A stretch of 64,000 nt of DNA from Convolutriloba macropyga (Eukaryota): the NCBI RefSeq assembly GCF_964194025.1, contig NC_134473.1, forward strand, positions 35,960,001 to 36,024,000, read 5' to 3'. Position numbers and translations under genes: made by a program. The notes under the pieces are model-generated. The model had not been told where the DNA came from and searched no databases. It worked only from the letters and a program-made list of their open reading frames with translations. Below are positions 12,230-57,629 of the stretch, in pieces (the stretch's first letter is position 1; every line of letters begins with the position of its first letter).

Positions 12230-12900
12230 AATGCATCAGAAAAGCAACGTTGGCTAACTGCCTGCCCAATGAAACCTTACGGTTTCATATCAACAAAATC
12301 CGAATGCCGCTCCGACCTTTGGATGCAGTACAATCTTCAACAATGAGCACACGACACCCTATCTTGATTCAAAACCACTGCCCTCACGGGAAGAATTCTT
12401 ACTCTGTTCGGGCTCTCCACTGAGCATAAGGGGTTTTATAATTACATGCGGCATTACGAAACTAGAGAAATTTTGCGATAATGCAGGATTTATGTTACAA
12501 CGTCGAAGCTAGGCCAGCAATTCAGATGCCAGAATGCGAAAGGCTCTACAAATCTACTAGCAATGAAGACAACGTATAGTTTGACCTCGCCGAAAATTGC
12601 TTGCGAGGATCAACAATCAGCAGTTTTTTCTTCAGGTAAAAATATTTTTGAACATTGGCTAATTCATGACCAAATGAAGACGAGGAAGCTTGAAAAAACC
12701 ACAGGAAAAATAATCTGAATTTCCAACATATAGATTTCATAAAAACTCAAAAAATAGTTACGTTGCATTGCTTTTTCGTTGGGGGAGGAGGGTGATCTCC
12801 TATAAAACAACTGTCAACAAAAATCTCCTAAAGCATACTAAGTCACAAAATCTGACACATTAACACTCCCACGCAGTGCCACCATTTTTGTCAGAGGCTG
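12230..12900 (+). mobile_element. CRE-clade non-LTR retrotransposon 3' end (zinc knuckle plus restriction-like endonuclease), decayed
   Basis: Across frames: ASEKQRWLTACPMKPYGFISTKSECR..LWMQYN; CPHG....RALH...GFYNYMRHYETR; MQDLCYNVE; STSNEDNV.FDL. This follows the CRE-type WL.A.P...GF.L.K.EFRD...RY / C.C...HAL.C..GG...RHNE.RD / DV.VEP / EDEARLDI pattern. Confidence 0.75.
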
Positions 12901-17016: not shown

Positions 17017-17690
17017 AATGCATCAGAAAAGCAACGTTGGCTAACTGCCTTCCCAATGAAACCTTACGGTTTCATATCAACAAAATCCGAATGCCGCTCC
17101 GACCTTTGGATGCAGTACAATCTTCAACCATGAACACACAACACCCTATCTTGATTCAAAACCACTACCCTCACGGGAAGAATTCTTACTCTGTTCCGGC
17201 TCTCCACTGTGCATAAGGGGGTTTATAATTACATGTGGCATTACGAAACTAGAGAAAGTTTGTGATAATGCAGGATTTATGTTACAACGTCGAAGCTAGG
17301 CCAGCAATTCAGATGCCAGAATGCGAAAGAATCTACAAATCTACTAGCAATGAAGACAACGTATAGTTTGACCTCGCTGAAAATTGCTTGTGAGGATCAA
17401 CAATCAGCAGTTTTTTCTTCAGGTGAAGATATTTTTGAACATTGGCTAAGTCATGACCAAATGAAGACGAGGAAGCTTGCAAAAACCACAGGAAAAATAA
17501 TCTGAAACTTCAACATATAGATTTCATAAAAATTCAAAAAATAGTTATGTTGCATTGCTTTTTCGTTGGGGGAGCAGGGTGATCTCCTATAAAACAACTG
17601 TCAACAAATATCTCCTAAAGCATACTAAGTCACATAATCTGACACATTAACACTCCCACGCAGTGCCACTATTTTTGTCAGAGGCTGACA
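17017..17690 (+). mobile_element. Duplicate of the CRE 3' fragment within copy 2 of the 4.8-kb duplication
   Basis: Near-identical to 12230-12900; retains ALHCA*GGYNYM. Confidence 0.75.
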
Positions 17691-24329: not shown

Positions 24330-26800
24330 TATTTCACAACAACCGATTAGCAATACGCACATAGCAAACTAATCTTACATCCTGAAACCCCGCCATATTG
24401 CAATTTTAATTTAGTCAGTAAAGATATGACGGGCACATCTTGTATTAAAACAGGTTTTTACGAGTTGACCGATAATTCGGTCGAATTTCCAAAGGCCAAA
24501 GATACAACTCTAAATGGCCCTAAAAACACATACTGCTTTCTCGATGACATTTTGATATTAAGTAGCAGAACGTTTGATGAACAATCAGAAAGTGCTTAGA
24601 AGAATTGCAAGATGAAAAACCCAGAATAAACCTATCAAAAAGCCACTTCGCAAAGAACAAAATTGAATGGCTCGGCTTAAAATTTCCAATAAGTGGTATA
24701 AAGCCATTAAGAACAACAGATGTAAATTTTTTTCAGAACCCGCCAACTACACTGAAAAAATTGAGATCATTTCCCGGAACTGTAGATCAACTTAGTAAAT
24801 TCATACCAAAATTCAGCAAAATTTGCCAACCTTTAAGACCACTACTAAAAAAATCAAAGCTTCAGAGGGACCGGAAGCCATACCATACACTTTGGAAAAA
24901 TCAAAACGAAAATAGCAGAACCGACTGAAAACAAACACTACAATCCGAATCCAGAAACCGGAATAAAATGCCATACCTCTATAGAGGGTTTAGGAGCAGC
25001 TCTGGGACAATTAGATCATGAAGGTCGGAAAACAGTTGCATTGAATTCTCATTTCTTGATATCAGTCAAATCAAGTTATAGTATCAAAAAATGGAACTCC
25101 TGGAGGTGGCATGGGCTATAATATTTCAAATGTTATTTATTTGGACACAAATTTACAGTTATCACATGCCATCGTTCACAACTCGCGATTATGAAGGAGC
25201 ATTGCTCGAATAAGTCCTATAACAGCATACCTACTCGCTGGGTAGATCGGATTTTATCATCCAATTTTGAAATAGGACACCTGCCAAGCACAAAAATGGG
25301 CTCAGTCGATTTTATTTTGCGCGAGTCTTACCATATAGAACCTAACATAACACATTGCGATGAGCATTTCGTGGTAGCTAAACGTGATTTAATGAAACGC
25401 AGCGCAAAAAACTTCTTTTCCTTTGGAATAAATAAAATTATAAGTCAACCGCGCAACAAATTGAGGTAAACTACCCACCAATACACAAATTTGACAAAAA
25501 TGCCACCGAAAAAGCTAATTTTGCGGGGCAAGTAGAAGGCATGAAATCATTCCACACAGAATTAAAATTCGACTCAAAAATCCATTCCTCAATTTCAATG
25601 GACGAAATGACCAACAGCATTGCACACAATCAATCCACCTGTTTGTTGGCTCTGATTCAGTCAGTAAATCGGCTCTCTAATTTTGAAAGAATTGCTCAGC
25701 CATTTGTTAATCTCAACGAGTTTCCAAAAACAGCTAAGCAGAGCACACCATCCCGAGTCAGATTCGACGACGAAACAAAAAAATTTGCTACCCAAACCAA
25801 AAAACACAGACCTCAACAATTCACAAAGACACACAAGACTCCACAAACATCAGTAGACATCAACCCAGATGCGTTCAATTTATCCCTAAGCAAGATATTC
25901 AGGAAAATGCTGCTCGCTTGCCTCACAACGAAAGACGCCATCTTAAACGTGGTCAGAGACTGTGTGCTGACGGGGAACGAGGAAAGATGCAAGCCGCTGA
26001 GGAGTCCTTACATACACCGTTTCTGGCAGGAATTACACGCAAAATCTGGTTGCGTTTGCATCGATGATCGAATAGCAATTCAGCAGTTTTTTCAGAAACG
26101 CCTACTTAGGTGCAATCCACAAAACATACTCCGACAGTTAGGGGATGACGGTTATTGCCTTTCATGAGTCGTGGCCATGTATGAGCAGACATATTATTTG
26201 AAAAATCTCAAAAGGTGGGCCCTGCATAAAAATCGGCAAAAACTTAAAAACAGTCACACCATCAACAAATTGCCTCAAGTCAGACCATGTAAAGAACCTA
26301 AACGATGGGTTCAGATTGGTTTTGGCGGGCCTATTGATAATGAACAAGATCAGGACGTTTATTTGTTTGCCTGCATTGATCGTTTTTTCTGAAATTTTGT
26401 CAGCAGAAATCTATGACCACGTAAATGCTAGTATCATCCAAAAATTTCTTCAAAACTACGTTCTCTGACACGGTGTTCCGCTGCGCAATCCATTTGACCA
26501 GACAAGGTGAAAGAATCGCAAAAATGATTAGTAAATTGCTAAAGACTAGTAAATAAATGACCACAGAACAAGTGGCTAAGTAGAACTTTTGGTAAAAACA
26601 GTTAAAGGAAGACTCGGATGTTTTAAAAAAAACTGTCATTTCGCAATTGAAGCTCAAGAGCTCGATAAAATCGGAAATATACCAGCTTAGAGTATGCAAA
26701 CATGAAAACTCTAAGAACTAGCCTATTTGAAGCGCATTTCGGCCGCAAACCAAACACACCTTTAAGCAATATGTGCGCTCAACCAATTATGTTTAAACTA
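24330..26800 (+). mobile_element. Ty3/Gypsy pol (RT, RNase H, integrase), heavily decayed
   Basis: AHSKLILHP...CNFNL...KTGFYELTD...YCFLDDILI (RT); IEWLG...PPTTLKKLRSFPG; EGLGAALGQ, FTVITCHR, TRWVDRI...FEIGHLP..KMGSVDFILR (RNase H region); VQIGFGGPI...YLFACIDRF, PFEAHFGRKPNTP (integrase). The RT-RH-IN order indicates Gypsy. Confidence 0.9.
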
Positions 26801-29800
26801 TGACTGAATTGTGACAAACAGTTATTAGGATCAATTTGCTGTTCAGTGGACCAGTCTCATCTCAGAGGAGAAAGGGGAAGACCGCTAACGCAGTGCCACA
26901 GAAGTGCAAGTGAACAAGACAAACGCTATTCACGACGCAAACGAAAGACATTTAGGGAACACGCCAGATGAATTGCGCCTATAAAAAGTAGACGGATTAG
27001 GCCGGCAAATAACAAAAACGAAAGAATGACTTCAATTGAAGCTGTTAAAAAAGTTACCAATTAACCAAAAACTCAGGGGTCTATACAAGGTTCTGGCTCC
27101 CGGCTGCACCATTCTCGAAGACGACGGCGTCACCCACGTAAACAAAGGACCGGGCAAAGTGCAAGTAAGCGTACAAAATGGGAACCGGGGAATTCCGACA
27201 CAAACGCCGAGAAAGAAAACTCACACAAAATCTACGCGGAAAGAAGACCAAAGACACCGTAGAGGACAACACCGAGGAAAAAATTTTAAAACAAGCCACC
27301 AACCCCAAGAGAAAACTAGAGGGTGGCAAGCGAATTAGCCGCAAACAACCCATCGAGGAGGTCAGTATCGTCTCATCAGTAAATTCAAATTTTCCAAGAG
27401 CACTGCGAGTTCAAGTGCCAGAATAGTCCGCATATCCCCCACCACCGTTCCCCCTTAAAAGACACACAAGCGGCAAATACAAGCAACACAATAAACAAGC
27501 CACGACGCAGCAAAGGAAACTAAACCACAAACACTGACTCAGCATGTGGATCAATGGTTTCGTGCACAGCGGTTTTGACTACTCCAGAGCATTTGAAAAC
27601 TAGCCCATTTGAAGCGCACTTCAGCTGCAAACCAAACGCATCTTTAAGCAACATGTGCACTGAACGAAATATGATTAAACTTTGAATGAATTGTTATAAA
27701 CAGTTATTTGGATCAATATGCTGTTCAGTGTCCCAGCTTCCTCCCAGAGGGAAAAAAGGAAAGACTGCTAACGCAGTGACACAGAGATGCAAGTGAACAA
27801 GACGCAAACGCCAACAATTAGGAAACACGCCAGTTGATTTGCGCCTAATAAAAGTAGACGGATTAGGCCGGCAAATAACAAAAACGAAAGAATGACTTCA
27901 ATTGAAGCTGTTAAAAAAGTTACCAATTAACAAAAACTCAGGGGTCTTTACAAGGTTCTGGCACCCGGCTGCACCATTCTCGAAGACGACGGCGTCACCC
28001 ACGTAAGCAAAGGACCGGGCAAAGTGCAAGTAAGCGTACAAAATGGGAATCGGGGAATTCCGACACAAAAGCCGAGAAAGAAAACTCAAACAAAATCTAC
28101 GCGGAAAGAAGACCAAAGACACCGTAGAGGACAACACCGATAAAAAATTTTAAAACAAGCCAGCCACCCCAAGAGAAAACTAGAGGGTGGCAAGCGAATT
28201 AGCCGCAAACAACCCATCGAGGAGGTCAGTATCGTCTCATCAGTAAATTCAAATTTTCCAAGAGCACTGCGAGTTCAAGTTACAGAATAGCCCGCATATC
28301 CCCCACCACCGTTCCCCCTTAAAAGACACACAAGCGGCAAATACAAGCATCACAATAAACAAGCCACGACGCAGCAAAGGAAATTGAACCACAAACACTG
28401 ACTCAGCATGTGGATCAATGGTTTCGTGCACAGCGGTTTTGACTACTCCAGAGCATTTGAAAACTAGCCCATTTGAAGCGCACTTCAGCTGCAAACCAAA
28501 CGCATCTTTAAGCAACATGTGCACTGAACGAATTATGATTAAACTTTGAATGAATTGTTATAAACAGTTATTTGGATCAATATGCTGTTCAGTGTCCCAG
28601 CTTCATCCCAGAGGGAAAAAAGGAAAGACGGCTAACGCAGTGACAAAGAGATGCAAGTGAACAAGACGCAAACGACCAACAATTAGGAAACACGCCAGTT
28701 GATTTGCGCCTAATAAAAGTAGACGGATTAGGCCGGCAAATAACAAAAACGAAAGAATGACTTCAATTGAAGCTGTTAAAAAAGTTACCAATTAACCAAA
28801 AACTCAGGGGTCTATACAAGGTTCTGGCTCCCGGCTGCACCATTCTCGAAGACGACGGCGTCACCCACGTAAACAAAGGACCGGGCAAAGTGCAAGTAAG
28901 CGTACAAAATGGGAACCGGGGAATTCCGACACAAACGCCGAGAAAGAAAACTCACACAAAATCTACGCGGAAAGAAGACCAAAGACACCGTAGAGGACAA
29001 CACCGAGGAAAAAATTTTAAAACAAGCCACCAACCCCAAGAGAAAACTAGAGGGTGGCAAGCGAATTAGCCGCAAACAACCCATCCAGGAGGTCAGTATC
29101 GTCTCATCAGTAAATTCAAATTTTCCAAGAGCACTGCGAGTTCAAGTGCCAGAATAGCCCGCATATCCCCCACCACCGTTCCCCCTTAAAAGACACACAA
29201 GCGGCAAATACAAGCAACACAATAAACAAGCCACGACGCAGCAAAGGAAACTAAACCACAAACACTGACTCAGCATGTGGATCAATGGTTTCGTGCACAG
29301 TGGTTTTAACTCCTCCAGAGCATTTGAAAACTAGCCCATTTGAAGCGCACTTCAGCTGCAAACCAAACGCATCTTTAAGCAACATGTGCACTGAACGAAA
29401 TATGATTAAACTTTGAATGAATTGGTATAAACAGTTATTTGGATCAATATGCTGTTCAGTGTCCCAGCTTCATCCCAGAGGGAAAAAAGGAAAGACGGCT
29501 AACGCAGTGACACAGAGGTGCAAGTGAACAAGACGCAAACGACCAACAATTAGGAAACACGCCAGTTGATTTGCGCCTAATAAACGTAGACGGATTAAGC
29601 CGCCAAATAACAAAAACGAAAGAATCACTTCAGTTGAAGCTGTTAAAGAATTTACCTATTAACAACAACTCAGGGGTCTATACGAGGTTCTGGCACCAGG
29701 CTCGACCATTCTCAAAAACGACGACGTCACCCACGCAATCAAAGGACCGGGCAAAATGCAAGTAAGCTTAAAAAATTGGAACCAGGGAATTTCGGCACAA

Positions 29801-29965
29801 AAACCGAGAAAGAAACCCCCGCTCAAAATCTACGCGAAAAGAATACCAAAGACACCGTAGAGGACAACACCGAGGAAAAAATATTAAAACAAGCCAGCCA
29901 CCCCAAGAGAAATGTAGAGGGTGGCAAGAGAATTAGCCGCAAACAACCCATCGACGAGGTCAGTT
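26715..29965 (+). repeat. Tandem array of ~866-bp units (~3.7 copies) made from the Gypsy integrase 3' region
   Basis: actagcc(c/t)atttgaagcgca recurs at ~26718, 27598, 28463 and 29329; identical 100-aa ORFs at 27036 and 28767. Confidence 0.95.
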
Positions 29966-32320
29966 TCGAGAATGACGTAGAACGAGCAGCAAACCGTTAC
30001 GATCCAGCAACACACCGCAACAATCAACAACGCTCCTCCAATGCAGCACTCCTGCCTGCAATCTCTCCAGTCGCGCCGCAATCCAGCGTAGTGGAAGGTT
30101 TTCAGTAACTTGCAGAGCCAAACTTCTTTCCTACTACGTATCCAGAGTTTAGAGGGATTTCGCCTCAAATTGCACCAGTAACCCAATTCTATGAATCACC
30201 GAAATTGAATCCAACAATACGCTCTGCCCTAGAATCCGAAATGAACACTGACTCTGAAAGTGATTTGATTTTGATAAAAATTTGGCTCTCCAAAAAAACA
30301 TTAACCACATAATTTATTAGTATAATAAACAATACATGCTATTTAATGTTCGGACACTTTGGAAATTCTGACCAAAAGAGCAAAGTATTATTTTCGTTTT
30401 GTAGAGGAGGAGAAGTGGTACACAGGTATCCTAACTTGTACTTATTTAGCTCATGCTTCATTTCTTTATTTGGTATTTTTCGTGATGGATATGATTTTGT
30501 CTGTAGTTGAGATATTTCACGTTGCAGTTCTTAACTTACATTGTCGTTCATACCTTTTGGAATTTTGATGCTAAACTTGTTCATTCGTTTTTGTCAGCCA
30601 ATTTGTTGTTCATGCATACTCAATTTGTCTAGCAGCCATTCCTTGACTGCCTAAGTTATTCTTCATTCCACATTTTCATCTTTTAATATTCACTACTGAA
30701 TTGAAAAGCTAAATTGTTCTATTCGCAAAGCGAAACTAGTCTGTAGTTTTAATGTGCCGAATTGCCCCACGAATCACTCCAACAGCATAAAGAACTTTTA
30801 AGGGTGTCTCGCCTCACGAATCAGCATTAGAAAGATAATCGTTCTAAACGCACCACAAATCGACAAATTATCGTAGCACATAAACTGTGTACGACAACAA
30901 AAATAGCATATTTTACAAACAATTGAACTAATGGCAAACGGATAGAAATTCTAATGTTTTTCAAAGTGCAAGACAATTAAGGTCATTGTTAATCAACTAA
31001 GAAGTCTTTAAATGCCTACTAACAAATCAAAATTTTATTAACTAAATCGGGGACTTTCTGCTTCACAAACTAGCATTTAAATTTCACGCTCACAATCATC
31101 ATGTAAAAATTTTCGAGTCTTTTGAGGATCGAATACGGGGATCTCGGCTTGAGACTACATTGAGCACAAAGTTACTCTCCGTGAAAGCCTTTAACGAGCT
31201 TTCACATTGCCCCTTTATCTCTTCTTTTATTCCTTGACTGAAGATGTTTTTTTCTTCTGTTTTTCATGGGACAGATGCCACTTTTGGGGCAGGAGTGAAG
31301 AGAAGAAATGTTCCTCAGCTTTGGCATCAAATTTGGCAGTATCGTTGTTTCATACTTTCGTATAAGGCAGTCCGGTTTCCTGTATGACTGATGTAGTCGG
31401 AGAAGAATCCAAAACTGCAAATCCGAGTGCAAGAGTATGATATAATCAATTCAAATCTGTTTTATTTTCTACTGATTTGACAAGCTATAATTTGTTTTCC
31501 AGCAAGTGCTCAATGCGTGATAGTTGACTAATCAACTTCGAATGTATTAGGAAGCGGGATTAATGTAGTCGTTATTATATCGTTGGCCAGCCTCTATTGA
31601 GGCCGTCTTCAAGGCTTCCTTCACAAACAAACCCCTTCGGTTGGTAATTGACCAGCCTCTGTCAATCAAGTGTTATTCCACTGGTAACGTATCAGCACTT
31701 AAGGATTATTGAGCCAATTCATTCCTTTCATAGGACTTGTTTCTGATGTAAGCTTTATTTCTAATATTACTGAGTGTAGATCTTCTAAAATGCGCTAGGA
31801 ATGGCTATGAGTTTGATGTCTGTCGTTTACAGATACGATTTTTGGTTTACGAAAGAGCGTATTGTGTCTTTTACGTTTTAATAAATGAATTTTAGAATAG
31901 GTTTTTTATACAACCCAATCGTTTCGTTTGATCTAGGCCTCTTCTTCTAAGTACACCGCCATCATTTAAGTAATCTTCAAAGAAGTTTACCTTAGTAGTG
32001 CCCGCATAAAAAATCTATAGCAAAAATCAAGGAAACTGCTTTATCAATGGTTTTTAATGAATATTTTACCGCCAAGCTCAATCTGTATATTTTTGGGTGT
32101 TTCGACACAACGTTAATATGATTTTTCAATGATACAGAGAAATTGTAGAGCTATATTTGGATTTATTTGCAATATCAGTACAGCTTTTGCAGATTACAGC
32201 CCTCTTCAAAATTTCGCTGTGCAAATTGGGAGATCAAATTGAGCAAAATAAATTACCCAGGTCCCCAGTTGAATATAAAAATTTATCAAGCAAATTTTTT
32301 TCATTATTCCTTGACAGAAG

Positions 32321-32646
32321 TGTTACCGAGTAAATTGAATTGAATAAATTATATCACTAGATAGAGAATTCTTGTGCGTATTATATCAAAACTTTCGTTT
32401 AGATTTTCCGTTCTAAAAGCAACATACGTATTATTTCTGAGAAATACAAAGGCCGATTTCCCACTAAGAATAACTTCCAAAATAGCTCAAAACTGATCGC
32501 TTAGCCTAACAAATTCGGTTTTTTGAACAGATTAGTTTAAATCGGTGACCTAGACTAAGACCTGCTAAAAAAGATCAAGCTAGATTTGCCTCCAAGTAAA
32601 CGATGCTTATTGCCTTGACGTTTCGATATACAGTTGACTATAGACT

Positions 32647-32721
<75 letters not shown>

Positions 32722-32768
32722 GATCTCGATGAATTGACTTTACGAAAGACTGCCTTTTGTCAGCTTTA
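32321..32768 (+). repeat. 5' LTR of BEL element 1 (448 bp, contains (TA)n at ~32651-32721)
   Basis: tgttaccgagtaaattgaatt ... gactgccttttgtcagcttta. About 8 substitutions versus the 3' LTR, plus a difference in TA-tract length. Confidence 0.95.
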
Positions 32769-32771
32769 TTC

Positions 32772-32781
32772 TGGTGCCGTT
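32772..32781 (+). promoter_or_regulatory. Putative primer-binding site (tRNA-His-like)
   Basis: TGGTGCCGT three nucleotides after the LTR, complementary to the ACGGCA-CCA 3' end of eukaryotic tRNA-His. The match is short. Confidence 0.55.
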
Positions 32782-33976
32782 CTCAATCTACGAAAAACAT
32801 TATTTAGCTTCCCGCAGTTTCTCCTCTTGTTGTCTGATAGAAGTTGCGACTGCGCAATTTTATTCTAATTCCTGATTAGACGAGGGTTGCTTGAGCGCCC
32901 TTGATTAAACGTATCCGTTATCGCTTACAGTTGGACTTATTTATCTCTAACTCAATTAACGTAGACAGATTCAATTTCACGCAAGCAGTCAGACACATAC
33001 GCAATTGACGGTGATAACAAGCAAGGAATTCACGTCAACCGATTTCATTTGAACAGACTGAAGTTCATTTGAGATGTTTCATCGATTAACGGCAAACTGG
33101 TCTGAGTTAGGGCACCAGTTTGATCTTTAACCATATCCATTAAATTGAGACAATCAGTGGTTATTTACTAGCATTAAGGGGACCCCTCTTTTGCATTACT
33201 TTCCTACTTTATTCCAGGCTGTTATAGTTAACCGGGGCTCAGATGTCGTTCCTAGCTGTATCAGTGAAAAAAGGTCAACTGATTGGAGCGCCAGATGAAT
33301 TTGAATGAGCCGGAAACATCTCACAAAAAATGCATCCGGTAAAATAGAGGTCAACAGATGATTGAGTTGGGCCGAAAGTACGAGAGATGTGCCAGTTCCT
33401 TCAACTGAGAGAAGTTACATAAAACTTGTAAGAGGTACCCAAACTTCAACTTAATTTTCATTTGATGCTCTAAACTTTTATACCGGCAAATCTAGTAAAC
33501 CCCCATCTTGGTTTCGTTTTCTTTATTCTGGTACTATCAAAAATCCCTCGCCACCGATAACCTAAATCATATTTTTTTGTTTATCAAAAGAAAAAATTCA
33601 TCAAATTTGAAAAAAATTGGCCGATATTTGAACAATTAGCAGTAGTACGTATTGGTATCTCTGAATTGCAAAAACGCTGTATACACCTTATATCTGGCGA
33701 AGCAAAAAAAAAGTTTGAAAAAATTGACCAAACTTGATGAAATTTTGCAAAAAATTTATATAAAGCGTTGATAGATGGCGGATCGAACATTTGTATAAAA
33801 AAGGGTAGAATTAAGGGTTTGGTCAAGATTTTCAAACTTTGAAAAAAAAAGAATCAGATAACTGATTTTTTTTGCAAATAAGCGCTTATTCTTGGAAAGT
33901 CGTCAAAATTGTGCCTTGAACATCAAGGTTTGGAGTTTGAGCAAAGCTCAAATCAATTATCTTGTTAAAACATCAT

Positions 33977-34535
33977 ATGGTTTTCATATTAGCTGCAAGT
34001 TCACTTCATCACGCCATAAAAACTGCGCCTCAAGTAACACAAAATCGTTACAAACGTAACATTTACGCATTACCGGGTTTAAGTTTCAACCCCAACGCTT
34101 TGAAAGTCCGAAAAGCAGCGCAGTTCCAGTTGAGTCATTTCTTTCATGATAAGAAGCGCCTAGTTATATGGCATGATGTGGTGAACAATTCATTGTCCCG
34201 TCATCATCGCAGTAACAACAATAAGCCTCTAACAACTTCGCAGCTAATTGAAGTGCTTGAAAAGTATCAGGAGCGCATAGAAGCTATAGTGTATTGCCCC
34301 AGAGAGGGAACAGAAAGATCTTAGTTTACTTAAAGAGTACAGAGCATTACACCAAAGGCCTGCGCTTGAGCTGAAAACACTCACTATAGTCTTAGCTTAT
34401 GAGAACAACCTCCGGTCCTTGATAACACGGTCCCGAAAGAAACTTTCAAAGCGCCGTCGTAAAACGCTTCGCACCCGTCATGCGTTCGAGGAGGCGGAAA
34501 TCACACAAGCCTTTGATAACCTGAATGTCACTTAG
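33977..34535 (+). pseudogene. SGNH/GDSL-hydrolase-like ORF with basic C-terminal tail, in the BEL leader (one frameshift near 34310)
   Basis: MVFILAASSLHHA (block I-like), ALPGLSF (block II-like), LVIWHDVVNNSL (block III-like), AIVYCPREG; the +1 frame continues QKDLSLLKEYRALHQRPALELK (block V-like His) ...RSRKKLSKRRRK...* at 34533-34535. Confidence 0.6.
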
Positions 34536-34794
34536 TCTTTCGCTGTTGTGGGAGTCTACCCGCTGAATGGCGCTTTACTAAACGTTTCGCTCTCCCCATT
34601 CTTCAAGTTTTTCACTACCGTCCGTTTTCCGCAGGTTATCTGGTTTCATTTTCCGCTTCCATCCTTTTGTTTCCGTGTCACTTTGCTTCTTTCTATCCCC
34701 CGTTTATTTGTTGCATGATGTAGTATGTTGGGTTTTGCTGTAGTAAAATTTCTTTCTGCTAGTATGCTGGTTTGTTGTTTAGTCTCGTTCCTTG

Positions 34795-35150
34795 CTAGGG
34801 TGTGACTTAAGTTCATTCTGGAGTTACGGCTGGTTTGTTTCGTGACTTTCACCACACTTGTTTGCTAGCAATTTGTTATAACTTTATTAATTTTTGTAGT
34901 ATGCACTTTTGTTGTCTGGGTATGGTGGTTTGCTAGGGTGTGACTTAAGTTTGTTCTGGAGTTACGGCTAGTAAATTTCCTCACCTTTTCGACTTTTGGT
35001 TATACTACATCGTTGCCGTTAATTGTTTCATCTCTGATGTTTTGATGCCGTAGATAAAGCACCATAATGTTTTGTGCTAGGTTACCTGACAGTAGCTTCT
35101 CTCCGCCTCTCTAGGGTGTGACTTGAGTTTATTTTGGAGTTACGGCTAGT
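34795..35150 (+). repeat. Three spaced copies of a ~40-nt hairpin-forming motif
   Basis: ctagggtgtgactt(a/g)agtt..tt(c/t)tggagttacggct(a/g)gt at ~34795, ~34933 and ~35111. Confidence 0.85.
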
Positions 35151-35253
35151 TTGTTTGGTTGAGTTCGTTGCTGTGGTCTGCTGGCATTGATCTTCCCGCC
35201 TCCTCGCTTGTGGTTTACCGTCTCCCTCCCGTGCTATCCCGGCTTCCCGTACC

Positions 35254-35420
35254 GTCGCGCGCCATCTGCCCGAGGTTTCCGCCACGCCCGTGCCGTTTTC
35301 CCGTTTCGTCGCGCGCCATCCGCTCGACATTTCTGCCCCGCCCGTGCCGTTTTCCCGCTTCGTCGAGCGCTTTCGCCCGACGCTCCCGTTTGTCCGTCCG
35401 GTTTCCCGTTGCGTCGTGCA
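35254..35420 (+). repeat. GC-rich ~54-bp tandem repeat x3 in the BEL leader
   Basis: gtcgcgcgccatc.gc.cga..tt.c.gcc.cgcccgtgccgttttcccg.ttc at ~35254 and 35308, with a degenerate copy at 35362. Confidence 0.8.
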
Positions 35421-35669
35421 TTACTCGTTCGGCGTCTCTTCCCGTCCGTTCCGTCTCCCGTTCTGTCCCGTTTCCGCTTTCTGCGCACCGTTCTTTCTTT
35501 CTTTCGCCGGGTACTATTGTACTCGACGAACAACTTTGCTCTTTGGCGGTTTGCTAGGCAACCGTCACACTAGAGTTCGGTATAACCCATTTGTGTTGTG
35601 CTGTTGCATGTCTATGTACTTTATATTAGTACCAAATTAAACTTGTGGTTCCTGTTTTTTCGTAAGATC

Positions 35670-38600
35670 ATGACAACATTGCAGGACAAATTTAACAAAC
35701 TTTATAATGTGAAGGCAAAATTAGAGGCTGAACCTAATAACATCTATGGTGATATTAACAATGCTGTTGATAAGCAAGACAGGAAAGTTAAGATCGAACG
35801 TCTGATTGTTAAGTGCAAGGATGCTTTTACTAGATTAGTTGATAAGAATGAAGAGCTCTTTGATCTGGCACAAAAAACTGAAGATCCAGACGCTGCCTGT
35901 GAGAACCTAGAACAATGGTTAATGACTGTAACAAAGAAAACTGATGAGTTCATTGCTGCTGCTCGAGGGTATATCAATTCGGTCCATGACAAAGAGACAG
36001 CAGATCTGTATACCTCTCATCATTCAAGATTAGGTTCACATATGACTTCCTCAAAAAGATCAAGTCAGCGTCAACGAGACAAAGAGACAGCAGATCTGTA
36101 TACCTCTCATCATTCAAGATTAGGTTCACATATGACTTCCTCAAAAAGATCAAGTCAGCGTCAACAAGAAATATCAAGACTCAAAAAAGAGGAATTTGAG
36201 AAACAACATGAGGCAAAGCTTTGCATTGCTAGACAGCGTCTTGAAATTGAAAAACAAACAAAATTGCGGGAATTGGGAATTGAGCAGCTTGAGGAGGATC
36301 ATCGCAAGGAAGTAGCTGCTGCAGCCCTTGAGGAAATTGAGTTGATGACAAAATCATCAGCAGGCGGGTCTGGTACAGGCAGAATGAGTGGGTTCTTTAC
36401 GGAAAGAAATTCAGTCAAGAGCAAGAAACTTGCTCAAGATTGGGTTAATTCGTCAACGGCCGGGAACACGCCAGATGTCGCAAACGAACCGAGTTTGCAT
36501 TTTTCTGGTTCCATCTCCCAATCCAACCAAGCAATTTTCCAACGACCTTACTCAACTCAACTTCCAAACTCACACTCCAATTTCAATACACATGGTCAAG
36601 TTGAGGCCAACATCAACCTCCCTGTCCATGAGCCGCAAGAACCAAGTAGTAGAACCAATGTAACCAATGATGCACATGTTGCAAACAACATCTTGCAAGA
36701 GCAGCAACAGCCTCAATATACGCCTCCATCACCCCCAGTAAATTTTGGTATGCAAACTCAACTAAACGCCCCAAACACAGCCCGACAACTGTCTCAAGCA
36801 ACAATGCACTTCGATGGTGTACAGTTAGATCATCAATTCCCGCGCAGGTCGAGCATGCCGGGACAGTTGAATTTAGTCAGCCCTCCGCGTTCACCACCTT
36901 TAAATACACTCGCTAATGCTCCGCTAGCACTTAATCCGCAACAAGCACACATAAATGTACCAGCCCCCCATCCCCCGTTCTAAACCCCGCACCACCGCAT
37001 TTCCCGTTAATGCCACCAGCATTCCGCTTTCCTCCTTCGCCGCCACAAGCACTCCCACTACACGCCAATAACCCCGTGGCGAATAATGTCAATCAGTTAC
37101 CCCATTCTCCGCTTGCACCAATCATTTCCTCCGCAAACGTTTTTGTACCTCAATTAATTCATCCACCACCCCCACAAAAGAGTTTTCAGCCCCAAAATTT
37201 TGTCCCTATAACCCACGCACCTCCTGCTCCTCCAGATCCAAATGTCTGGAGTTTTCCGGCAGCAGTTCCATCTAATGCAGTACCACTTGTACGAACATCC
37301 GCAAACTTATACACCGTACAACCGGCCCCGTCAATCAACCCTCATATATCTACATCGCACCGCTCCTCTCATGTAAAAGCAGCAGCAGGCGCTCAAAATT
37401 ACGTAACATCAGATTTCATGCAAGCGAATCCATTTAGTTCTTCCACAGGTACCGCCCCCACCTTTGTCACTCCGATCATTCCGCCAACGTATGGAGCTAC
37501 CGTTCCGAACCCGTTGTGTTGGGGTGGCCCGCCGCATCCCACACCTTCGGCTCCTTCTTTGGACTCTGCGGATTTGATAAAGCAGTTGGCGGAGGCAATT
37601 ACTTGTAAGAAGAACGATCCATTGCCGAGTGGAAGTTGTCACAGTACAACGGTGATCCCCTGCAGTGGCACGAATGGTTCGGACAATTTAAAAGCGCCAT
37701 AGACGCACAGTCCTTGACTGATGATGTCAAGTTAACATACTTAAAAACTCTTGTAACTGGAAAAACTAAAACCGCCATCGCTGAGTACGCATACTGTGGC
37801 GTAATGTATAAGGACGCACTTAAGACACTCGAACGTAAATTTGGACAACCACAGGCAGTAGTCAGTGCACACTTAGACAAACTCAGCTCTTTTCCTCCAC
37901 TTAAGATGCACAATAGTGATAACATCATAAACTATTCTGCAACAATTTCAAGTCTTGTTGGGGTCTTTAAATCACTTTCATATGACTCAGACCTTAAAAG
38001 CGCCTCACTTCTCAACACGGCTGTGCAAAAATTGCCGCCCAATCTGAAAGAGTCTTGGTCACTCTTCACTGTGAAGAAACATTGGGTTAGGCCAACACTC
38101 CTTGACTTCAACGATTGGTTGAAGGAGAAGGCGGAGGCACATGATTTAATGAAACAAACTTCATCGAAGGCAAGAACTGAGGATAACACCAACTCAGTAG
38201 TAAAGACCAAAGTTGCCTCAAGAACTTTTGCTGCTAATACACAAACTAAGGGCACTCAGAGACCAGCCTCAACATCGGCAACGCCTGCAACCCCTCGCTG
38301 CATTGTTTGTAAAGGTAACCATCGCATCTGGGAGTGTAGGGTATTTAAAGAAAAGTCTCCCACTCAGCGAGCAAAGGTAGTGGCGGAAGCAAAACTGTGT
38401 TTCTCATGTCTGAGAGAAAAGCATATGTTCAGGCAAGGCCCAAACCCCAGGAAATGCAGGAAGGACGGTTGCAACAGCTCCCATAATACTCTTCTCCACG
38501 GAGCTGAGAGGGTTTATCCATCTAAATCCCCTTCAAACAACAACAACAGTAATTCTAATGCTGGCGCAAATCAAAGTAAACTTCCTAGTGTCCAATCATC

Positions 38601-41600
38601 GAGTAAGACCACCACTTTGTCATCTGTGAGTAATGTGAATGGCCTCCTTCAGGTGACTGAATTACAGCTGAAGAGCTCTTGTGGTAAAGATACCACGGCT
38701 TTAGTTTTGTGCGATACCGCTTGCAGTAACTCTTGGGTGTCCAATGACCTTGCAATGACTTGGTTTGCACGGTACAGCATTGAAACTAACAGTCAAGGGT
38801 ATAAATACCGAGGAAGTTATAGACACTAAGCTAGTTGAAGTAATTGTAACACCACGCGACAACCAAGCATTTGAACCATTTAAAGTCAGCCCTTACGTAA
38901 AAGAAAATTTGAATGTAGGCGCCGATGTCATCAACATTAAAGCATTTCAAGAAATATACCCGCACCTAGCACTTCTAGATCCGGTTACATATTGCTATAG
39001 AAACATCGAGATGATACTGGGATAGGATGTGTATCATGCCATCCGCCCGTTAGAGTACTTCGCTGCGGACGAGAAGTCCTCGCCCTTCGCTGTTCGCTTA
39101 CCCTTAGATTGGGTTCTAAGCGGCCCTCTACCGTCGTCTTCAGGTTTAGTCTCGACTTGTTCCAAAGCTAATATGGAGCAGGATTTTGAACTCGCTAGTC
39201 AGGTAAAATCTTGTTACGACATGGAGTCGTACGGCGCACTTAAGCAAGTAGACCCACGATCCGCCTCTGATGCACGTGCGCATGAAATTCTTGAAAACAT
39301 CACCGTGCATAATGGAAAAAGGTACGATGTCGGAATGCTATGGGCTGAAGAAAACATCGAACTGCCCAACAATTATTTCTCAGCGCTTGTTCAATTAAAG
39401 TCTTTGGAAAAGCGGCTCACGAAAGATCACACATTAAGGGAAAAATAATCGAATACCATCAAAGAGGACTTAGACAAAGGCTACGTAGTAAGGGTCAAAG
39501 ATGCTCATAAGGTGGAAAGTCGCTCGGAACGAGAGTGGTACCTACCACACCATCCGGTTGTTAACCCAAACAAGCCGGGCAAGGTTCGTAGGGTACTAAA
39601 CGGAGCAGCAAAATTCCATGGCGCATCTTTTAATAAGTCATTACTCACCGAACCTGACCTGCTGCAAAACCTAATCTATGTACTCCTACGGTTCAGACAA
39701 CATCCATTTGCCGTATCCGCCGACATCGAGGGAATGTTCCTCCAAGTTGGAGTGTTACCATGTGATCAACCATCATTGCGCTTTTTGTGGCGGGAGGACC
39801 CCACATCAAATGTTGTGGTACACCAGTATACGCGCCACATCTTTGGGGCAAAAGATTCGCCCACCTGCGCCAACTACGCACTTCAGCGCACGGCAAGTGA
39901 TAATGTTAAGGAGTACCCAGAAGCTGCGAAAGCCGTCCTTGAGAACTTCTACATGGACGATTACTTAGACTTAGCGGAATCCCCCGAGAGGGCCCTCATT
40001 AGGTCGAAGGAATTGGTACATCTTCTCCATTTAGGTGGGTTCAAGCTTACTAAGTTTGTAAGCAATGTACCAGATCTGGCTGACCAAGTTGATGGGTCTG
40101 CTCAATCCACTGAACCGAAGGTCATCGTTTCATCAAAAAAGGAATCAATGCACGTGCTTGGGCTTAAGTGGGATCACAACAACGATGCTTTGGTTGTGAG
40201 TAGGGGCACTAACAGCACCATCACGAAAAATTTAACACAGCACTTGGTCTTAAGTCTTGTGTCAAAGGTCTACGACCCAATTGGTCTTGTCGCACCTTTC
40301 ACTGTTGGTGCTCGGTTAATCTTGAAAGACATTTGGCGTGTCAATGGACAAAGTTGGGATGACGAGTTACCTAAGGACACAGTTGACAGATTCCTTGCCT
40401 GGTGTATTGAACTGCCGCGGTTAGCTGAGATCACTATACCGAGAAGTTACTTTTCAGGACCATTCCAACATCTTAAACTCCACATGTTTGGTGATAGCTC
40501 GCAAGACCTATTCAGTACAGTAGGTTTTCTTAGGGCTCAAGTAACTTTCCCCTCCGGGGAGATTATAACAGAGCTGGTGTTTGTCTTGGGCAAGGCCCGT
40601 GTTGCATCTATGAAGGTAATGACAGTTCCTAAGTTGGAATTACAAGCCGCTCTCCTCGCTGCCCGTTTAAAAGGGGAAATCTGTCGAGCATTAACGGTTA
40701 CTGTGGACAAAGTTTTTATGTGGACAGATAGTACCATCGTCTTGCAGTGGATAAACTCAACAAACAAACACCCCATCTTCATTGCAAATCGTGTTAGTGA
40801 AATCCTGGAGAACATTAGCGTTGACCAATGGAACCACGTTGCCACTTGTGATAATCCGCCAGATGCTGGCACGCGTGGCATGTCCGCTGAAGTTTTGCAA
40901 TCAAGTAGCTGGGTGAGGGGTCCTGACTTCCTGAGAACTAAGCAATTCCCTTTTGTACCAAATGCTGACGTCGTTGATAACATCAAGCTCGGCGTTGTAA
41001 CTAAGGAGCAAGATGATGACTCCATCTCATCTCTAGCCGCATCTGTAAACAAGCTTCCTAAGGAACAAAGCATTAATCTAATCGCGTTTGATTAGTTTAG
41101 TTCTCATCAAAAATTACTTCGTGTCACCGCATATGTGCTCCGTCTTTTACCATCTCATGAAAGTTACCGTAACGTAGACGGCAGCATAGCCGACCCTGTT
41201 GAGCTTGACGAAGCCGAGCGTCATCTCCAGTACTTGGTTCAGGGAGAGTCCTTTAATACTGAAAGAAAGGATCTTCTTGACAACAAATCCGTTAAGAAGA
41301 GCAGCCGCATTGCTCAGTTCACTCCGTTTATTGGGCCTCATGGTCTCATCAGTTCTTCTGGTCGACTTCGACAGCTAGGGGAAATTAACTTTGACACTAA
41401 GCATCCTATCGTGCTGGATGCGCGTCATACTTTTGTTAAACTGTTTCTGCGGCATACTCATTTGAAGAACCATCATCAGGGCATCGATTACTTAAGGTCA
41501 AAGGTACAGGAACGTTACGCCATCCTAAAACTACGTTCCACACTGCGTTCCATCAAATCAAACTGCGTCTTGTGTAGAAAGTTCCGTGCAGCAACCATCC

Positions 41601-42566
41601 AACCTATCATGGTAGACCTCCCAAAGGAGAGACTCGCATACCAGTCTCCTCCTTTTACCAACACCGGGGTTGATTACTTCGGCCCATTCTACGTCACAGT
41701 TCGTCGGACTACCGAGAAGAGGTGGGGATTTCTTTTCACTTGTCTCACTACTCGTACTGTCCATGTTGAAGTCGCCCCGTCCATGGACACTGGTTCCTGT
41801 GTAATGGGAGTGGAGCGGTTCGTCTCCCGTCGGGATACTCCTGCTATGATTTGGTCGGATAATGGTATGAACTTCATTGGAGCGGAGAAAGAGCTCCGTG
41901 AATGTATGGAAAAATGGAATACGCTTAACATCGCTGCCGAACTTGCACATAAGGGCATTAAGTGGAGGTTCAATCCAACCAGCGCGCCACACCATCGGGG
42001 AGAGGTTAGTTCGTAGTTTTAGGAGAGTACTGTACACTATCCTCGGTACGCGTCGCTTCACAGATGAGTTGTTGAACACTACTTTTTGTCTGGTCGAATA
42101 CGCACTAGACACACGTCCCTTAACGCCCGTAAGCGCCGACCCGTCCGACCTAGGCGCAAAAACACCTTATCATTTTCTACTCGGTAACCAAGCAACCAGA
42201 ATTCCGTCCATCGTTGGCGTCGACGAGTTTGATCATCGTAAGCGGTACGCCCGTGCACAGTCATACGCCATTGCAATTTGGGCACGTTGGCTCAAGGAGT
42301 ATGTACCTGCACTGAACCGTAGATCTAAGTGGCAGACGCCTGCCGAGCAGCACCTCAAGGTCGGTGATTTAGTTTGGATCGTTGAAGAAAGCAACCCTAG
42401 GGGTTACTATCCAACTACTCGGATTGAAGAACTTCGATACGGTTCCGACAGCGTCGCCCGCTCCGCCGTCTTACGCACGTCATCCGGACCGCTCGTCCGC
42501 CCACTCGTTAAGCTTGTACCAATCCTCCCAACATTTTCTTCCGGGCCGGAGAATGTTACCGAGTAA
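35670..42566 (+). pseudogene. BEL/Pao gag-pol polyprotein, interrupted (stops at ~36981, 39023, 39446, 41093; frameshifts near 37625, 38757, 41995)
   Basis: Coiled-coil and proline-rich N-terminus; YNGDPLQWHEWFGQF (BEL gag core); three Cys/His knuckles (CIVCKGNHRIWEC, CFSC...H, CRKDGCNSSHNTLLH); protease LCDTACSNS; RT YLPHHPV, ADIEGMF, NFYMDD; RNase H FGDSS, VPKLELQAA, WTDS; integrase GVDYFGP, SDNG; C-terminal LKVGDLVWI. Confidence 0.95.
35988..36165 (+). repeat. Exact in-frame 90-bp (30-aa) tandem duplication in gag
   Basis: DKETADLYTSHHSRLGSHMTSSKRSSQRQ occurs twice, starting at 35988 and 36078. Confidence 0.95.
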
Positions 42567-42879
42567 ATTGAATTGTATAAATTATATCACTAGATAGAGA
42601 ATTTTTGTGCGCATTATATCAAAACTTTCGCTTAGATTTTCCGTTTTAAAAGCAACATACGTATTATTTCTGAGAAATACAAAGGCCGATTTCCCACTAA
42701 GAATAACTTCCAAAATGGCTCAAAACTGATCGCTTAGCCTAACAAATTCGGTTTTTTGAACAGATTAGTTTAAATCGGTGACCTAGACTAAGACCTGCTA
42801 AAAAAGATCAAGCTCGATTTGCCTCCAAGTAAACGATGCTTATTGCCTTGACGTTTCGATATACAGTTGACTATAGACT

Positions 42880-42932
<53 letters not shown>

Positions 42933-42973
42933 GATGAATTGAATTTACGAAAGACTGCCTTTTGTCAGCTTTA
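42554..42973 (+). repeat. 3' LTR of BEL element 1 (420 bp, (TA)n at ~42883-42929)
   Basis: Matches the 5' LTR; the pol frame ends 13 nt inside it. Confidence 0.95.
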
Positions 42974-44276
42974 AGAAGAATTTTGTTATGGTGATTTTGA
43001 GTCTTGAGTCTTCATTTAAACTCCATTTTGGTGTATCAGTGTAACAAATCGGTCTAGAGCTTAATGCCGCCAATTTTATTTTATTTTACCTTTTTTCTCA
43101 AGTCTTCACTGATATCTGCAATTCGCAAACGCAGAAAAAAGAAGTCGGCTAAAATTTCATGCAACAAAGATTTTTGTCCGGTTCCCTACATTTCCTTATG
43201 CGTAAAATTTTTCATCTACACTATTTTTTCCGTGGCAGCGGAAATTTGACAGATACTCATTTCCTATTCCCCACAGCAGGTACCATAAGCTACATGACCA
43301 TTTGAAAATTTACAAAATTATATGTCAAATTGTTTTCAATTACATCAGCCATAAAATGTGGTGTACCACTATACAAAACCTGATAAAATTTGTTAATTGT
43401 TATAAAGGTCTTAATTATTTGAAAGAATGTAAATCAGGTGTCTTGTGTTCGTTGAAATTCAGCTATTGTAAATCATATTATTTTGCACTTGTTTTATTGA
43501 TTGGCAGGAATGTCTGATCGGTAGAATATAGCTGGATTTTGCTCAAGGAGAAAAAACATAATATCATAACAATTCATAATTTTTTTATCCAGGTTGTGTT
43601 TGGTTTTCAAATTAGAAAAAATTTTTCATCTTGCCGATTTTAAGATTTTACTTTTTCATTAATTGTTCATAGTTTTCGCAGACACAAGGCTTATTTTTGA
43701 CTTTATATTCTACTCAAAGCGGTATCGGTAATGCATATTGAACCACAGAATCAGCTTCAAGGTGGAACGGCAGTCAAAGAAGTTAATTTTTTGCATCCGA
43801 AATAAATGAGCTGGCTTTGCCCAACTTTATGAAGAAGAGAGATCTGTCAAAAGAGTTTTATACTTTTTAACTGGTTAATCCGTTTGTTATCCGTATTCTA
43901 AAGTTTTATTAAAGATGAACTTAGTGCAAAAAGTCTCTTTTATTCTGTTTTCTGACCAACAATAAATTGATGCAGCTTATTGAATGGCTTTTAAATAATA
44001 AATTCAGTTGCTATTATTTACAGTTGGTAATTACAAAGAAGTTAAAATAAATCAGCAGGTTCCATTGATGAATCGTTACACTCGGTATTTACAAAGAATT
44101 TAAAATAATTCAGCAGGTTTCATAGGTTACACTGATGAAGCTTCACAAATAATTACAAGATTAGAGTCAAACACAACAATGGGGCTTTATACAACAATTA
44201 GGTTTTTAATAAATTCAAAAGGAGGTATTTACAAATGCTAACTGTACATTATGAAAGTAGCTTAATCGAAACAACA

Positions 44277-47200
44277 TTACAGATTGAATAAAAAGTTTAA
44301 ATAGTTTTTAGTTTGCTCAGGAGCTTCTTGCCATGATCCGTTTAAAACACTTGCATTAAATCGTAGAGTTTCGACTCTCATATGGACAATTATCTCAAGC
44401 CAGTTTGTCAATTGTAATAAAGTTCTTGCTGCATCTAATTTTTCGCATTCAAAAACCAGGTGTTCAGATGTTTCAAATTTATTTTCACAGAAACTGCAAA
44501 TCGGCGGGTCAGAGAAATTTTTCAGCCATCTTACTTGTTTGTCAACAAGACAGTTGAATGCTAGTCGATACAACAAATTTTGCTGTTGAAGTAAGAGCTT
44601 GTTTATTTTCCAAATATCTCCACAAAAGTGGGTTAATTCTTTGGTTGAACAATTGTATTTAGTGACAGCTTTGCGTAAACGATTTTCAATGAAACTGAAG
44701 GGGAAAATTTCATTGATTATGTAGCATTAGATTTCTTTTGTTTTCATGTGATCATGCAACCTGAGCGAGGATTCTCTGTTGTTTTTGATTAGAAGTAGAA
44801 CTTTCTCGTTCTGGACAACTTTAAGCTTTAAAGAGTTTATTAAAATGGATAGTTCCTTCGAAAAGGTGATCGAGTTCTCGTCAGATGAATTAAATTCGTC
44901 AAAAAGTTTTGCAGAAACAATTTTTGAAATAATGTGTGGAAGGGAGATCCCGCCTCTAGCTGATGACTGGTATAGGACTTCGCTTCTAATTTCCTTTCTC
45001 TATCCCGCTTTCAAAAGGCTGTTAACGAGGTTCTGCATAATTCTCAAGCTTTTCATGGTCGTATCTGTGTGTCGAGCATAGTAAAGGAAGTTTGGAAAAA
45101 TGAATGTTTCGATATTATTTTTCTTGGCTTTCAGTGTTTTCGCTCGAGAATTAAAACGACTGTAGATGGCTATTTGTGTTTTCAGGAGACTAAGAAATTT
45201 CGGATGAGAGTTGTCAGCGTAGAGTACTATACCAAGGATTTTTGTTGATCGCACAGTTTTATGAAAGGGAATATTGTTAGTAGATAGGATTTCGCTCTTT
45301 TTTACATTAATTTCTAGCTGGGTTTGATCACAAAGATCTTTCACAGTATCAAAGAGCGCTTCAATCGATGATTTATGAACTAGACATGTAATGTCATCAG
45401 CATATGCAACAGTTTTGGCCTTTACGAAACCTTTGTTGTGAATTGAGTTGTCAACGGAACAAAGTAACGGCTCAATAGCAAGAATAAAAAGCAAAGCTGA
45501 TAGAGGACACCCCTGTCTTACTCCACGTTCGAGAACAATTGTCTGGGAGAGGTAGCCGTTGATTTCAATAATTGCTTTGGTTTGCTTATATATTGTTCTG
45601 ATTGCAGATTTTGTAATATTATCTACACCTACTCTATCGAGAAGAGCGAATATATAATTCCTATCTACTTTGTCGAAAGCTTTTGAGAAGTCTAGATTTA
45701 CGATGCATTTACTGTTATTCATTTGTTTGTGGGCTTTGTGTACCTTCATCAGTGCTGTATTAATTTGTCGTTTGTTTAGGTAGGCGTGTTGATGTTGACC
45801 AATTACTTCTTCGAGGTTTTTGATTAGTCTGTTAGCCAAGACATGCGACAGAATTTATAAATCAGTGTTCAGCTGGCTTATGGGTCTGAACTCGTCTACT
45901 GTTCTGGGGTTTTCGGTTTTTGCAAGGAGGTTCAATATTGCAATTTGCTGGTTGTCTGAAAGTCTATTGGTGTTCACTACATTGTTGAAAACTTTTTTCA
46001 ATATGGGAGCCATTTCTCGTTTAAACACTTTATAAAAATTAGAAGTAATACCGTCTGATCCTGGTGAACTATCTGCGTTTAGTTTGTCGATTGCTTTCTT
46101 CACTTCGTCTAAGGTGATTTCGTTTTCTGTTGTCATTTCAGTTTCTTGCTCCTGCAGTTGATCAAGCAAGCTTTCAAATGACGATTTCTTTTTACTTTTA
46201 TACAGTTTTGAGAAATGATTTTCAAAAATTTTAATTATCTCTTCTTGATTACTTGTTACACTGTCACTAACTTTCAATGACGTAATACTATTTGTGCTGT
46301 TTTTAGTTTTCGACCATGTTTTGAGATCTCTGGCATTACCAATTTCACAGGGTTGCATCAATTTTTTAAAATGTTTAAAGCTCAGTCGTTGTTTGTTGTT
46401 CTCGTGCTCGTTGATTAGGGATATTGTTGCATTGTATCGATTTAAAATGGTTTGGTCTCATTTACCTTGCTGAATTTTATCTCTTAGTTCCTTTTCTTCA
46501 CTTAAGCTGCCTTTCATCTTTGAACTTATCACTCGGGATTTGTTTATCGCTAAGGCTTGGCATACATCACGTATATGACGCATCAACTCTTCATATGTGT
46601 CCTCAATCGGATAAAGATCACCAAATTGTTTCAGTTCTTCTCTGATATAGTTTTTATTTTAAACGAGTATAGTGTCATTCAATTTCCAAAAGCTCTGACC
46701 ACGTTCGTTTTCTTCAATTTTGTTGCTTAGCTCCAAAAGCATGTGATCTGAGAGATTATCTCTAAGTATTTTCTTGTTACTGTAATTGAGATGATTAGTA
46801 AAGAAATGATCTATGCGCGCGAAAGATGATGTTCTTTTATCATAGTGTGTGAAGTCTTGGACGTCTAGTTCAACTGCTATATCAAAAAGGAGCGCTTTTT
46901 CGATGACCGGCTTTAGCTTAGCGAATCTCTTTATTCTGCCATCTTCACTTCTCAGAGCATTTGAGGTGTTTCTTGGATCATGGTTAAAAGCATTGAAATC
47001 TCCTGCTAAAACTACAAATCTTCCAGGTTCAATTTTAGTGAGGCTTGAATTTAATTGTCTGAGCTTTGTTGTGTAATCGTTTGGATTTAAATACGTATTG
47101 ATTAAGACAAAGTTTAAATTTGGAAACGTTACTGCTGAATGATCTCTTGATTGAAATCTTTGTTCGTTGGTCTTGATTTCTTCGCTCCAAATTGTTATTA

Positions 47201-57620: not shown

Positions 57621-57629
57621 AAGACTCAA

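Follow-up and report, generated by a model that had tools for sequence, protein, structure and literature searches.

One clade of BEL/Pao retrotransposons carries a stand-alone accessory gene ahead of gag, and an interrupted open reading frame (ORF) upstream of gag in a BEL/Pao element of Convolutriloba macropyga is a decayed copy of it. The gene is fixed in the elements of this clade and under selection; its product is predicted to adopt an SGNH esterase fold. The ORF is not BEL-specific, as members of the same family head Penelope-like elements (PLEs) and LINEs of this genome.

SGNH esterases are already known from retroelements, as is an LTR element that shares a GDSL ORF with PLEs (PMC5408684). 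New are the carrier (BEL/Pao), the position (5' of gag) and a divergent family common to three retroelement classes. No publication on an SGNH gene in BEL/Pao elements or 5' of gag was found, nor one on a stand-alone esterase ORF in LINEs, in a literature search that lay outside Repbase, GyDB and most subscription journals, so that deposited elements may overlap with those described here. The function of retroelement esterases has been a question since their discovery in LINE ORF1 proteins. The family described here is small, stand-alone and soluble-looking, occupies the same 5' slot in three classes within one genome and offers hundreds of natural variants, so that its activity and its binding of lipids and RNA can be tested directly. 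The finding also extends BEL/Pao gene content past gag, pol and env, and documents module exchange into an LTR lineage; these elements likely exchange a helper part that binds membranes or RNA.

An interrupted ORF between the primer-binding site and gag of a BEL/Pao element

The window, the whole stretch of 64,000 nt that was analysed, covers positions 35,960,001-36,024,000 of the forward strand of NC_134473.1 (C. macropyga, GCF_964194025.1). It holds a full-length LTR element on the plus strand at 32321-42973, delimited by two LTRs and a 5-bp target-site duplication (32316-32320, with identical bases at 42974-42978). The 5' LTR (32321-32768) starts with TG, ends with TA and contains a TA microsatellite; it is ~98% identical to the 3' LTR (42554-42973), 9 of the 421 aligned columns being mismatched, one of these through an end artefact. 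The element belongs to BEL/Pao: its gag-pol (35670-42566) encodes DUF1759, RT, Peptidase_A17, integrase and DUF5641, and the domains follow the BEL-type order of gag, RT, RNase H region and integrase. Pfam detected DUF1759 (3.8e-15), Peptidase_A17 (8.9e-35) and DUF5641 (2e-20), and gave weak matches to RVT_1 and rve below their own cut-offs. In many sister copies gag-pol is a single open frame of about 2280 codons; in the window it is interrupted by stops and frameshifts as well, so the window copy as a whole is decayed.

A partial primer-binding site at 32772-32779 is complementary over 8 nt to the host tRNA-Phe(GAA). Among 20 sister copies, the tRNA-Phe match spans 18 nt in 2, 12-14 nt in 3 and at most 9 nt in 15. 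tRNA-His was considered as primer and rejected, the host genes that match the primer site being those of tRNA-Phe. With its LTRs, the content and order of its gag-pol domains and its size of about 10 kb, the element resembles the Belpaoviridae (PMC8742986; PMC3118150). The ICTV profile of that family lists gag, pol and env only, with tRNA-Arg or tRNA-Gly primers (PMC8742986). The BEL clade described here differs in its extra 5' gene and its putative tRNA-Phe primer site and, in the window copy, in LTRs that end with TA.

The earlier note on this DNA had described a sense ORF in a leader of ~2.9 kb between the primer-binding site and gag, broken by a single frameshift that was probably a deletion. 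This description was accurate. The distance from the primer-binding site to the gag ATG is 2.9 kb, and the ORF starts with the ATG at 33977. Its 5' part (33977-34324) runs for 115 codons and includes the motifs FILAASSL, ALPGLS and VIWHDVVNNS in one frame, which ends at a premature stop at 34322-34324. The 3' part (34312-34535) is out of frame and carries ALHQ, the conserved His, the last helix and the Lys/Arg-rich tail in a second frame ending at 34535. Comparison with sister copies placed the break at an 80-nt deletion at about 34309 (site 34309-34312, sliding over 3 nt), which distinguishes the window from 4/4 sister copies compared; the segment missing from the window ORF was present in all 29 sister loci examined. 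An intron was considered and rejected for this segment, as its ends are not GT/GC-AG. Contigs of four DNA-like runs from one study stop at the deletion site, with none of the pieces listed running across it, so that they speak neither for nor against the window's junction; among the runs listed, none was of RNA.

The ORF is preceded by a non-coding leader (32780-33976) with 10 ATGs, of which the last 110-280 nt are conserved among copies. It is followed by a non-coding spacer (34536-35669) with 12 ATGs and short internal repeats. Directly before the gag ATG, the spacer ends in a conserved pyrimidine run terminating in AG, which was found in family 1 (the window and the 16 sisters shown) and was absent from two family-2 copies. 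The gag-pol message might be spliced at, or internally started from, this conserved AG.

The ORF is a constant and selected part of the element

Searched with the ORF, the C. macropyga genome gave 2396 candidates, of which 150 were scored, a number that is not a copy number. All 150 matches were at least 88% identical, and most had an open frame of 215-231 codons. To avoid selecting by the ORF itself, 20 copies were then taken spread along the list of gag matches. The ORF was upstream of gag in 20/20 of these copies and intact in 12 of them (211-214 residues), and 8 copies had gag-pol open for all of the 1833 codons covered. In two additional sets, each of 30 loci chosen through gag and the first including the window's own locus, the ORF was present within 1.5 kb in 24/30 and 27/30 cases; at the other 6 and 3 loci, coordinates placed an ORF match ~2 kb upstream. 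Thus, a BEL lineage with a 5' accessory gene, as the earlier note had proposed, was borne out with family-wide co-occurrence, and the sister copies without the ORF that it had named as counter-evidence did not appear among the 20 gag-selected copies.

Among intact copies, 55 of which were picked through their protein match, dN/dS of the ORF was 0.19. Because these copies had been selected through the protein, the calculation was repeated on the 20 gag-selected copies. Over 190 pairs, dN/dS was 0.23 for the ORF, near the values for the gag N-terminus (0.21), DUF1759 (0.16) and RT (0.19), and 1.47 and 1.40 for the shifted frames of the ORF. Among the 55 copies, variants present in at least 5 copies were synonymous in 50 cases vs 28 that were not, and private variants in 48 vs 69 (P=0.002). 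These results showed purifying selection in the ORF's own frame only, and the ORF is no chance frame.

A nested insertion or a passive PLE or LINE remnant lying in the leader, functionless for BEL, might be suspected because homologues of the ORF come first in PLEs and LINEs of this genome and because the window copy is broken. However, the PLE- and LINE-borne homologues are only ~35-42% identical, and the ORF recurs in three BEL families and on metagenome BEL contigs in addition to the 20/20 gag-selected copies. Moreover, the ORF has kept a low dN/dS while the leader beside it has diverged past alignment, being mostly unalignable among copies upstream of about -500. Constant presence, purifying selection and the unalignable leader together led us to reject a nested insertion, which we regard as highly improbable.

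The product is predicted to adopt an SGNH fold

A naturally intact sister copy served to start a profile search, which recovered 902 representatives at E<=0.001. An alignment of 100 homologues (27-83% identity) was used for structure modelling; three rows of alignment A3 (P0206, P0233 and P0178) looked non-homologous and were left out of later alignments. The model of the natural intact copy (pLDDT 96.5, pTM 0.86) has five strands (residues 3-6, 29-31, 62-64, 100-105 and 125-127), flanking helices and a long C-terminal helix. Foldseek placed PAF-acetylhydrolases (PAF-AH) and GDSL lipases at ranks 1-11, with a best E of 1.7e-3, none reaching 0.001. With VIA-align against 48,161 chains, the best match was the OatA catalytic domain (Z 10.7, rmsd 3.4, 139 aligned), to be read against best Z values of 7-8 that unrelated models reach; among the 50 rows listed, the first plainly unrelated one had Z 6.9. 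Nearly all 50 rows are SGNH/GDSL proteins, OSK among them. A further comparison agreed with this one; in the two, matches to SGNH enzymes span model residues 1-173, with Z up to 10.7-11.0. The structural matches thus accord with the SGNH-like ORF claimed in the earlier note, which had taken the lack of any SGNH hit as the outcome that would speak against it. In the ESM Atlas, the homologue P0113 led to GDSL clusters at 0.88, which is a lead only, and the BEL copy gave nothing (best 0.76).

Sequence methods missed the relation. Pfam detected no SGNH family on the window pieces or the natural intact copy, and one in 0/100 homologues among the 25 listed of 41 families. No SGNH relation was detected in the PDB by sequence or by profile, and hhalign against 8 canonical SGNHs of the C. 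macropyga genome gave a probability of 0.5%. The SGNH assignment therefore rests on the predicted structure. The esterase structure of the zebrafish LINE ZfL2-1 was absent among the structure matches listed, which is not evidence of a different fold. A search of viral contigs gave no relative. Because Pfam misses the family, the gene may go unannotated in many repeat libraries.

Conserved polar residues and a basic tail

Secondary-structure order, not superposed coordinates, was used to map residues onto the SGNH blocks. By this mapping, S8 after strand 1 (92/98 in the 100-homologue alignment), G34 after strand 2 (92/100), N70 and N71 after strand 3 (82/100 and 89/100) and H151 before the last core helix (94/99) would represent blocks I, II, III and V. 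These residues, at putative catalytic and oxyanion positions, are 82-95% conserved and lie among the most conserved columns of the 100 homologues. H66, four residues before N70, is present in 92/100, and D67 and E157 are each >90% conserved.

Block I reads (G/A)AS, so that the Asp of GDS is absent, and the position three before the His was never Asp in the 27 covering rows of 30. The family accordingly lacks the complete canonical set of GDS, GxND, DxxH and triad Asp; D67 or E157 could stand in for the missing acid. The earlier note had stated that the canonical GDS and DxxH residues are altered and that the protein may therefore be non-catalytic. Both Asp residues are indeed gone, but the Ser, Gly, Asn and His are well conserved, and some catalytic function may remain. 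The position tentatively assigned to the transposon-specific Ser is mostly Cys (67/100).

The BEL-borne proteins are strongly basic, with a pI of 9.8-10.8 in 8/8 full-length rows and 8-11 Lys/Arg within a stretch of 15 residues in the tail. Two LINE-borne rows are weakly basic, with net charges of +1 and +3.

The family heads BEL elements, PLEs and LINEs

Searches of the C. macropyga genome with distant homologues brought up further carriers. Two sets of 20 loci were hand-picked for diversity, so the counts are not frequencies. In the first set, 12 ORFs were upstream of PLE pol and 8 upstream of BEL gag; in the second, 15 head LINEs and 5 precede BEL gag, and these brought in a third BEL family. 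The ORF, carried by three BEL families of this genome, was found at 0/20 loci of more distant BEL families (RT 28-46% identical). The PLE carriers L063 and L065 encode RVT_1, PHD and GIY-YIG, and in several PLE loci the ORF and pol are flanked by direct repeats of 241-449 nt (pseudo-LTRs). LINE carriers have three ORFs, the SGNH gene being a separate first ORF ahead of ORF1 and an APE-RT ORF2. In L213, ORF2 encodes Exo_endo_phos and RVT_1, and 15 genome loci match both ORF1 and ORF2 of this locus.

Among 12 metagenome loci, the ORF had BEL gag downstream in 3 (one degenerate), was accompanied by LINE ORFs in 4 and followed a PIF1/GIY-YIG ORF in 1, and 4 were without context. The best matches of L211 and L217 in C. 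macropyga's own genome are only ~40% identical, so these loci likely stem from other organisms. The ORF was stand-alone in every context seen; as weak evidence on this point, a search for longer forms gave, from 7990 candidates, a single match, which was joined to a PLE C-terminus.

Several features of individual carriers were also recorded. In L063 (3734-6340, minus strand) and L065 (3606-6260), a PHD finger lies inside the RT region and there is a separate upstream ORF; the two ORFs of L063 are in frame and divided by a single stop codon. L221 (2-4209) contains an 808-codon partial ORF with a PIF1-like helicase and GIY-YIG, followed by an SGNH-family member. In the third BEL family (L260-L262 and L272, upstream of position 2500), short tandem-repeat arrays lie directly upstream of the SGNH ORF. 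L333 (2399-7800), and likewise L314, is a LINE in which a stand-alone ORF before ORF1 encodes an SGNH with canonical GDS, GxND and DxxH. Multi-copy stand-alone ORFs of canonical SGNH type, 177 and 205 codons long, occur at L312-L332 and L335-L338, where the queries used detected no retroelement gene nearby.

The history of the gene in BEL elements

All six BELs with the ORF fall into one clade (98/98) in a 12-row tree of RT-RNase H, in which long branches meet among the ORF-less rows. Family 1 splits from families 2 and 3 in this tree, and the SGNH tree branches alike. The latter (30 rows, unrooted) groups 8/9 BEL rows with 94/89 and all 9 with a moderate 79/90, and 84% of bootstrap trees keep all 9 BEL rows on the same side. 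PLE rows form a group with 93/85; LINE rows are the most divergent and do not resolve, and LINE monophyly was not rejected (p-AU 0.39). A 100-row SGNH tree made with a quick method, including 90 rows without context, kept BEL apart from PLE and was mostly unresolved.

These trees fit a single capture in the BEL clade with vertical descent. A BEL ancestor would have taken the gene once from a co-resident non-LTR retroelement, probably via template switching, and passed it down vertically thereafter. Since the SGNH tree is unrooted and LINE monophyly was not rejected, the tree does not establish the donor among the carriers. That a canonical SGNH fills the same first slot in the related LINE L314/L333 gives a hint of a LINE donor.

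The closest precedent comes from the Vesta LTR retrotransposons of bdelloids, whose ORF3 encodes a GDSL/SGNH protein of a family found also in Athena PLEs (PMC5408684). As in our elements, an extra SGNH ORF is present in both an LTR element and PLEs, and gene sharing between classes was proposed (PMC5408684). In contrast, Vesta ORF3 lies 3' of pol, keeps intact catalytic residues and is reported to show no clear departure from neutrality (PMC5408684). The BEL ORF lies 5' of gag and is under purifying selection; its motifs are altered, and it also occurs in endonuclease-bearing PLEs and in LINEs.

A proposed role in membrane tethering and its alternatives

We consider it likely, at a probability of roughly 55%, that the product anchors RNA or particles of the element at negatively charged membranes and has a Ser-His site able to hold an acyl ester or to cleave it slowly. 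The Lys/Arg-rich C-terminal helix would bind the element's RNA, the basic SGNH domain would dock the RNP or particle on acidic phospholipid membranes, and the Ser-His site, without the usual Asp, would bind or slowly hydrolyse an acyl ester. This role is drawn by analogy with the ZfL2-1 esterase, whose architecture differs.

SGNH esterases are known in ORF1p of CR1/L2, RTEX and Neptune/BRIDGE elements (PMC3905857). For the ZfL2-1 enzyme, slow hydrolysis of short esters, binding of acidic phospholipids and liposomes independent of the catalytic residues, and an adjoining Arg-rich motif implicated in RNA contact are reported (PMC3905857). Like it, the protein described here has a predicted SGNH fold encoded upstream of pol, is strongly basic and carries a basic motif. 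H66 may be the counterpart of H191, the transposon-specific His of ZfL2-1, as its spacing to N70 equals that of H191 to N195 (PMC3905857). The two proteins differ in that the ZfL2-1 esterase is a C-terminal domain after a coiled coil and the Arg-rich motif, with a full Ser-His-Asp triad (PMC3905857), whereas the ORF here is stand-alone, encodes 200-212 aa, places its basic motif C-terminally and lacks the DxxH Asp. In the LINEs studied here, too, the SGNH gene precedes a separate ORF1, unlike the esterase fused within ZfL2-1 ORF1p.

The loss of the Asp of both GDS and DxxH, together with the strongly basic protein and its Lys/Arg tail, could instead point to a catalytically dead module that acts in RNA binding or as a nucleic-acid chaperone without any lipid role, its conserved residues holding the fold. 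The model for such a module is the OSK domain, which binds RNA and which the structure comparison recovered as well (5a4a; Z 8.2, rmsd 3.9, 145 aligned). OSK thus shares the SGNH fold and the loss of canonical catalytic residues with the ORF product; in Drosophila Oskar this loss is documented (PMC3905857). However, OSK belongs to a host germ-plasm protein, is 8% identical and scores under many active esterases, and the ORF family keeps its Ser and His. Conservation of 82-95% at Ser8, Gly34, Asn70/71 and His151 exceeds the expectation for a dead site, and D67 or E157 might supply the acid. We therefore judge an OSK-like module unlikely.

An active deacylase aimed at a host silencing or defence target (a protein, carbohydrate or small molecule) would serve any retroelement as counter-defence. 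Consistent with this, a separate 5' gene has been kept by LTR elements, PLEs and LINEs despite their entirely different replication cycles, the first BEL family is highly amplified (the 2396 candidates above), an SGNH member adjoins the PIF1/GIY-YIG ORF in L221, and O-acetyl esterases and transferases are among the top structural matches. Yet function does not follow from a common fold, the basic tail would better suit binding to RNA or membranes, and the tested retroelement esterase showed no peptide-deacetylase activity (PMC3905857). We hold a deacylase to be improbable, to about the same degree as the OSK-like module, and retain membrane tethering as the preferred role.

More speculatively, this Asp-less SGNH family, with its hundreds of 50%-identity clusters, may be a universal 5' accessory gene that moves among LTR elements, PLEs and LINEs and supplies a need common to them, such as membrane docking for cell-to-cell or germ-line transfer, replacing env, or the disarming of host defence, and it may have helped the BEL clade to amplify. 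We put this broader idea forward tentatively and think it rather doubtful.

Other features of the window and the host genome

Several LTR subtypes and mostly unalignable leaders were observed on a nearly uniform internal region (window 32321-33700; L191-L210). Beyond the 3' LTR, broken LINE RT-like frames were identified by eye on the minus strand at 44277-45854. The window also contains a tandem repeat with four copies of a ~865-nt unit (26700-30100), a satellite with 32/96/129-nt units and inverted arms (56500-59700), and tandem duplications at 200-6650 and 10800-19350 with spacings of ~3.1 kb and 4.79 kb and 92-97% identity. Elsewhere in the host genome, tRNA-Phe genes form a tandem array with ~450-nt spacing at about 58.94-58.98 Mb of C8 (L346, L347).
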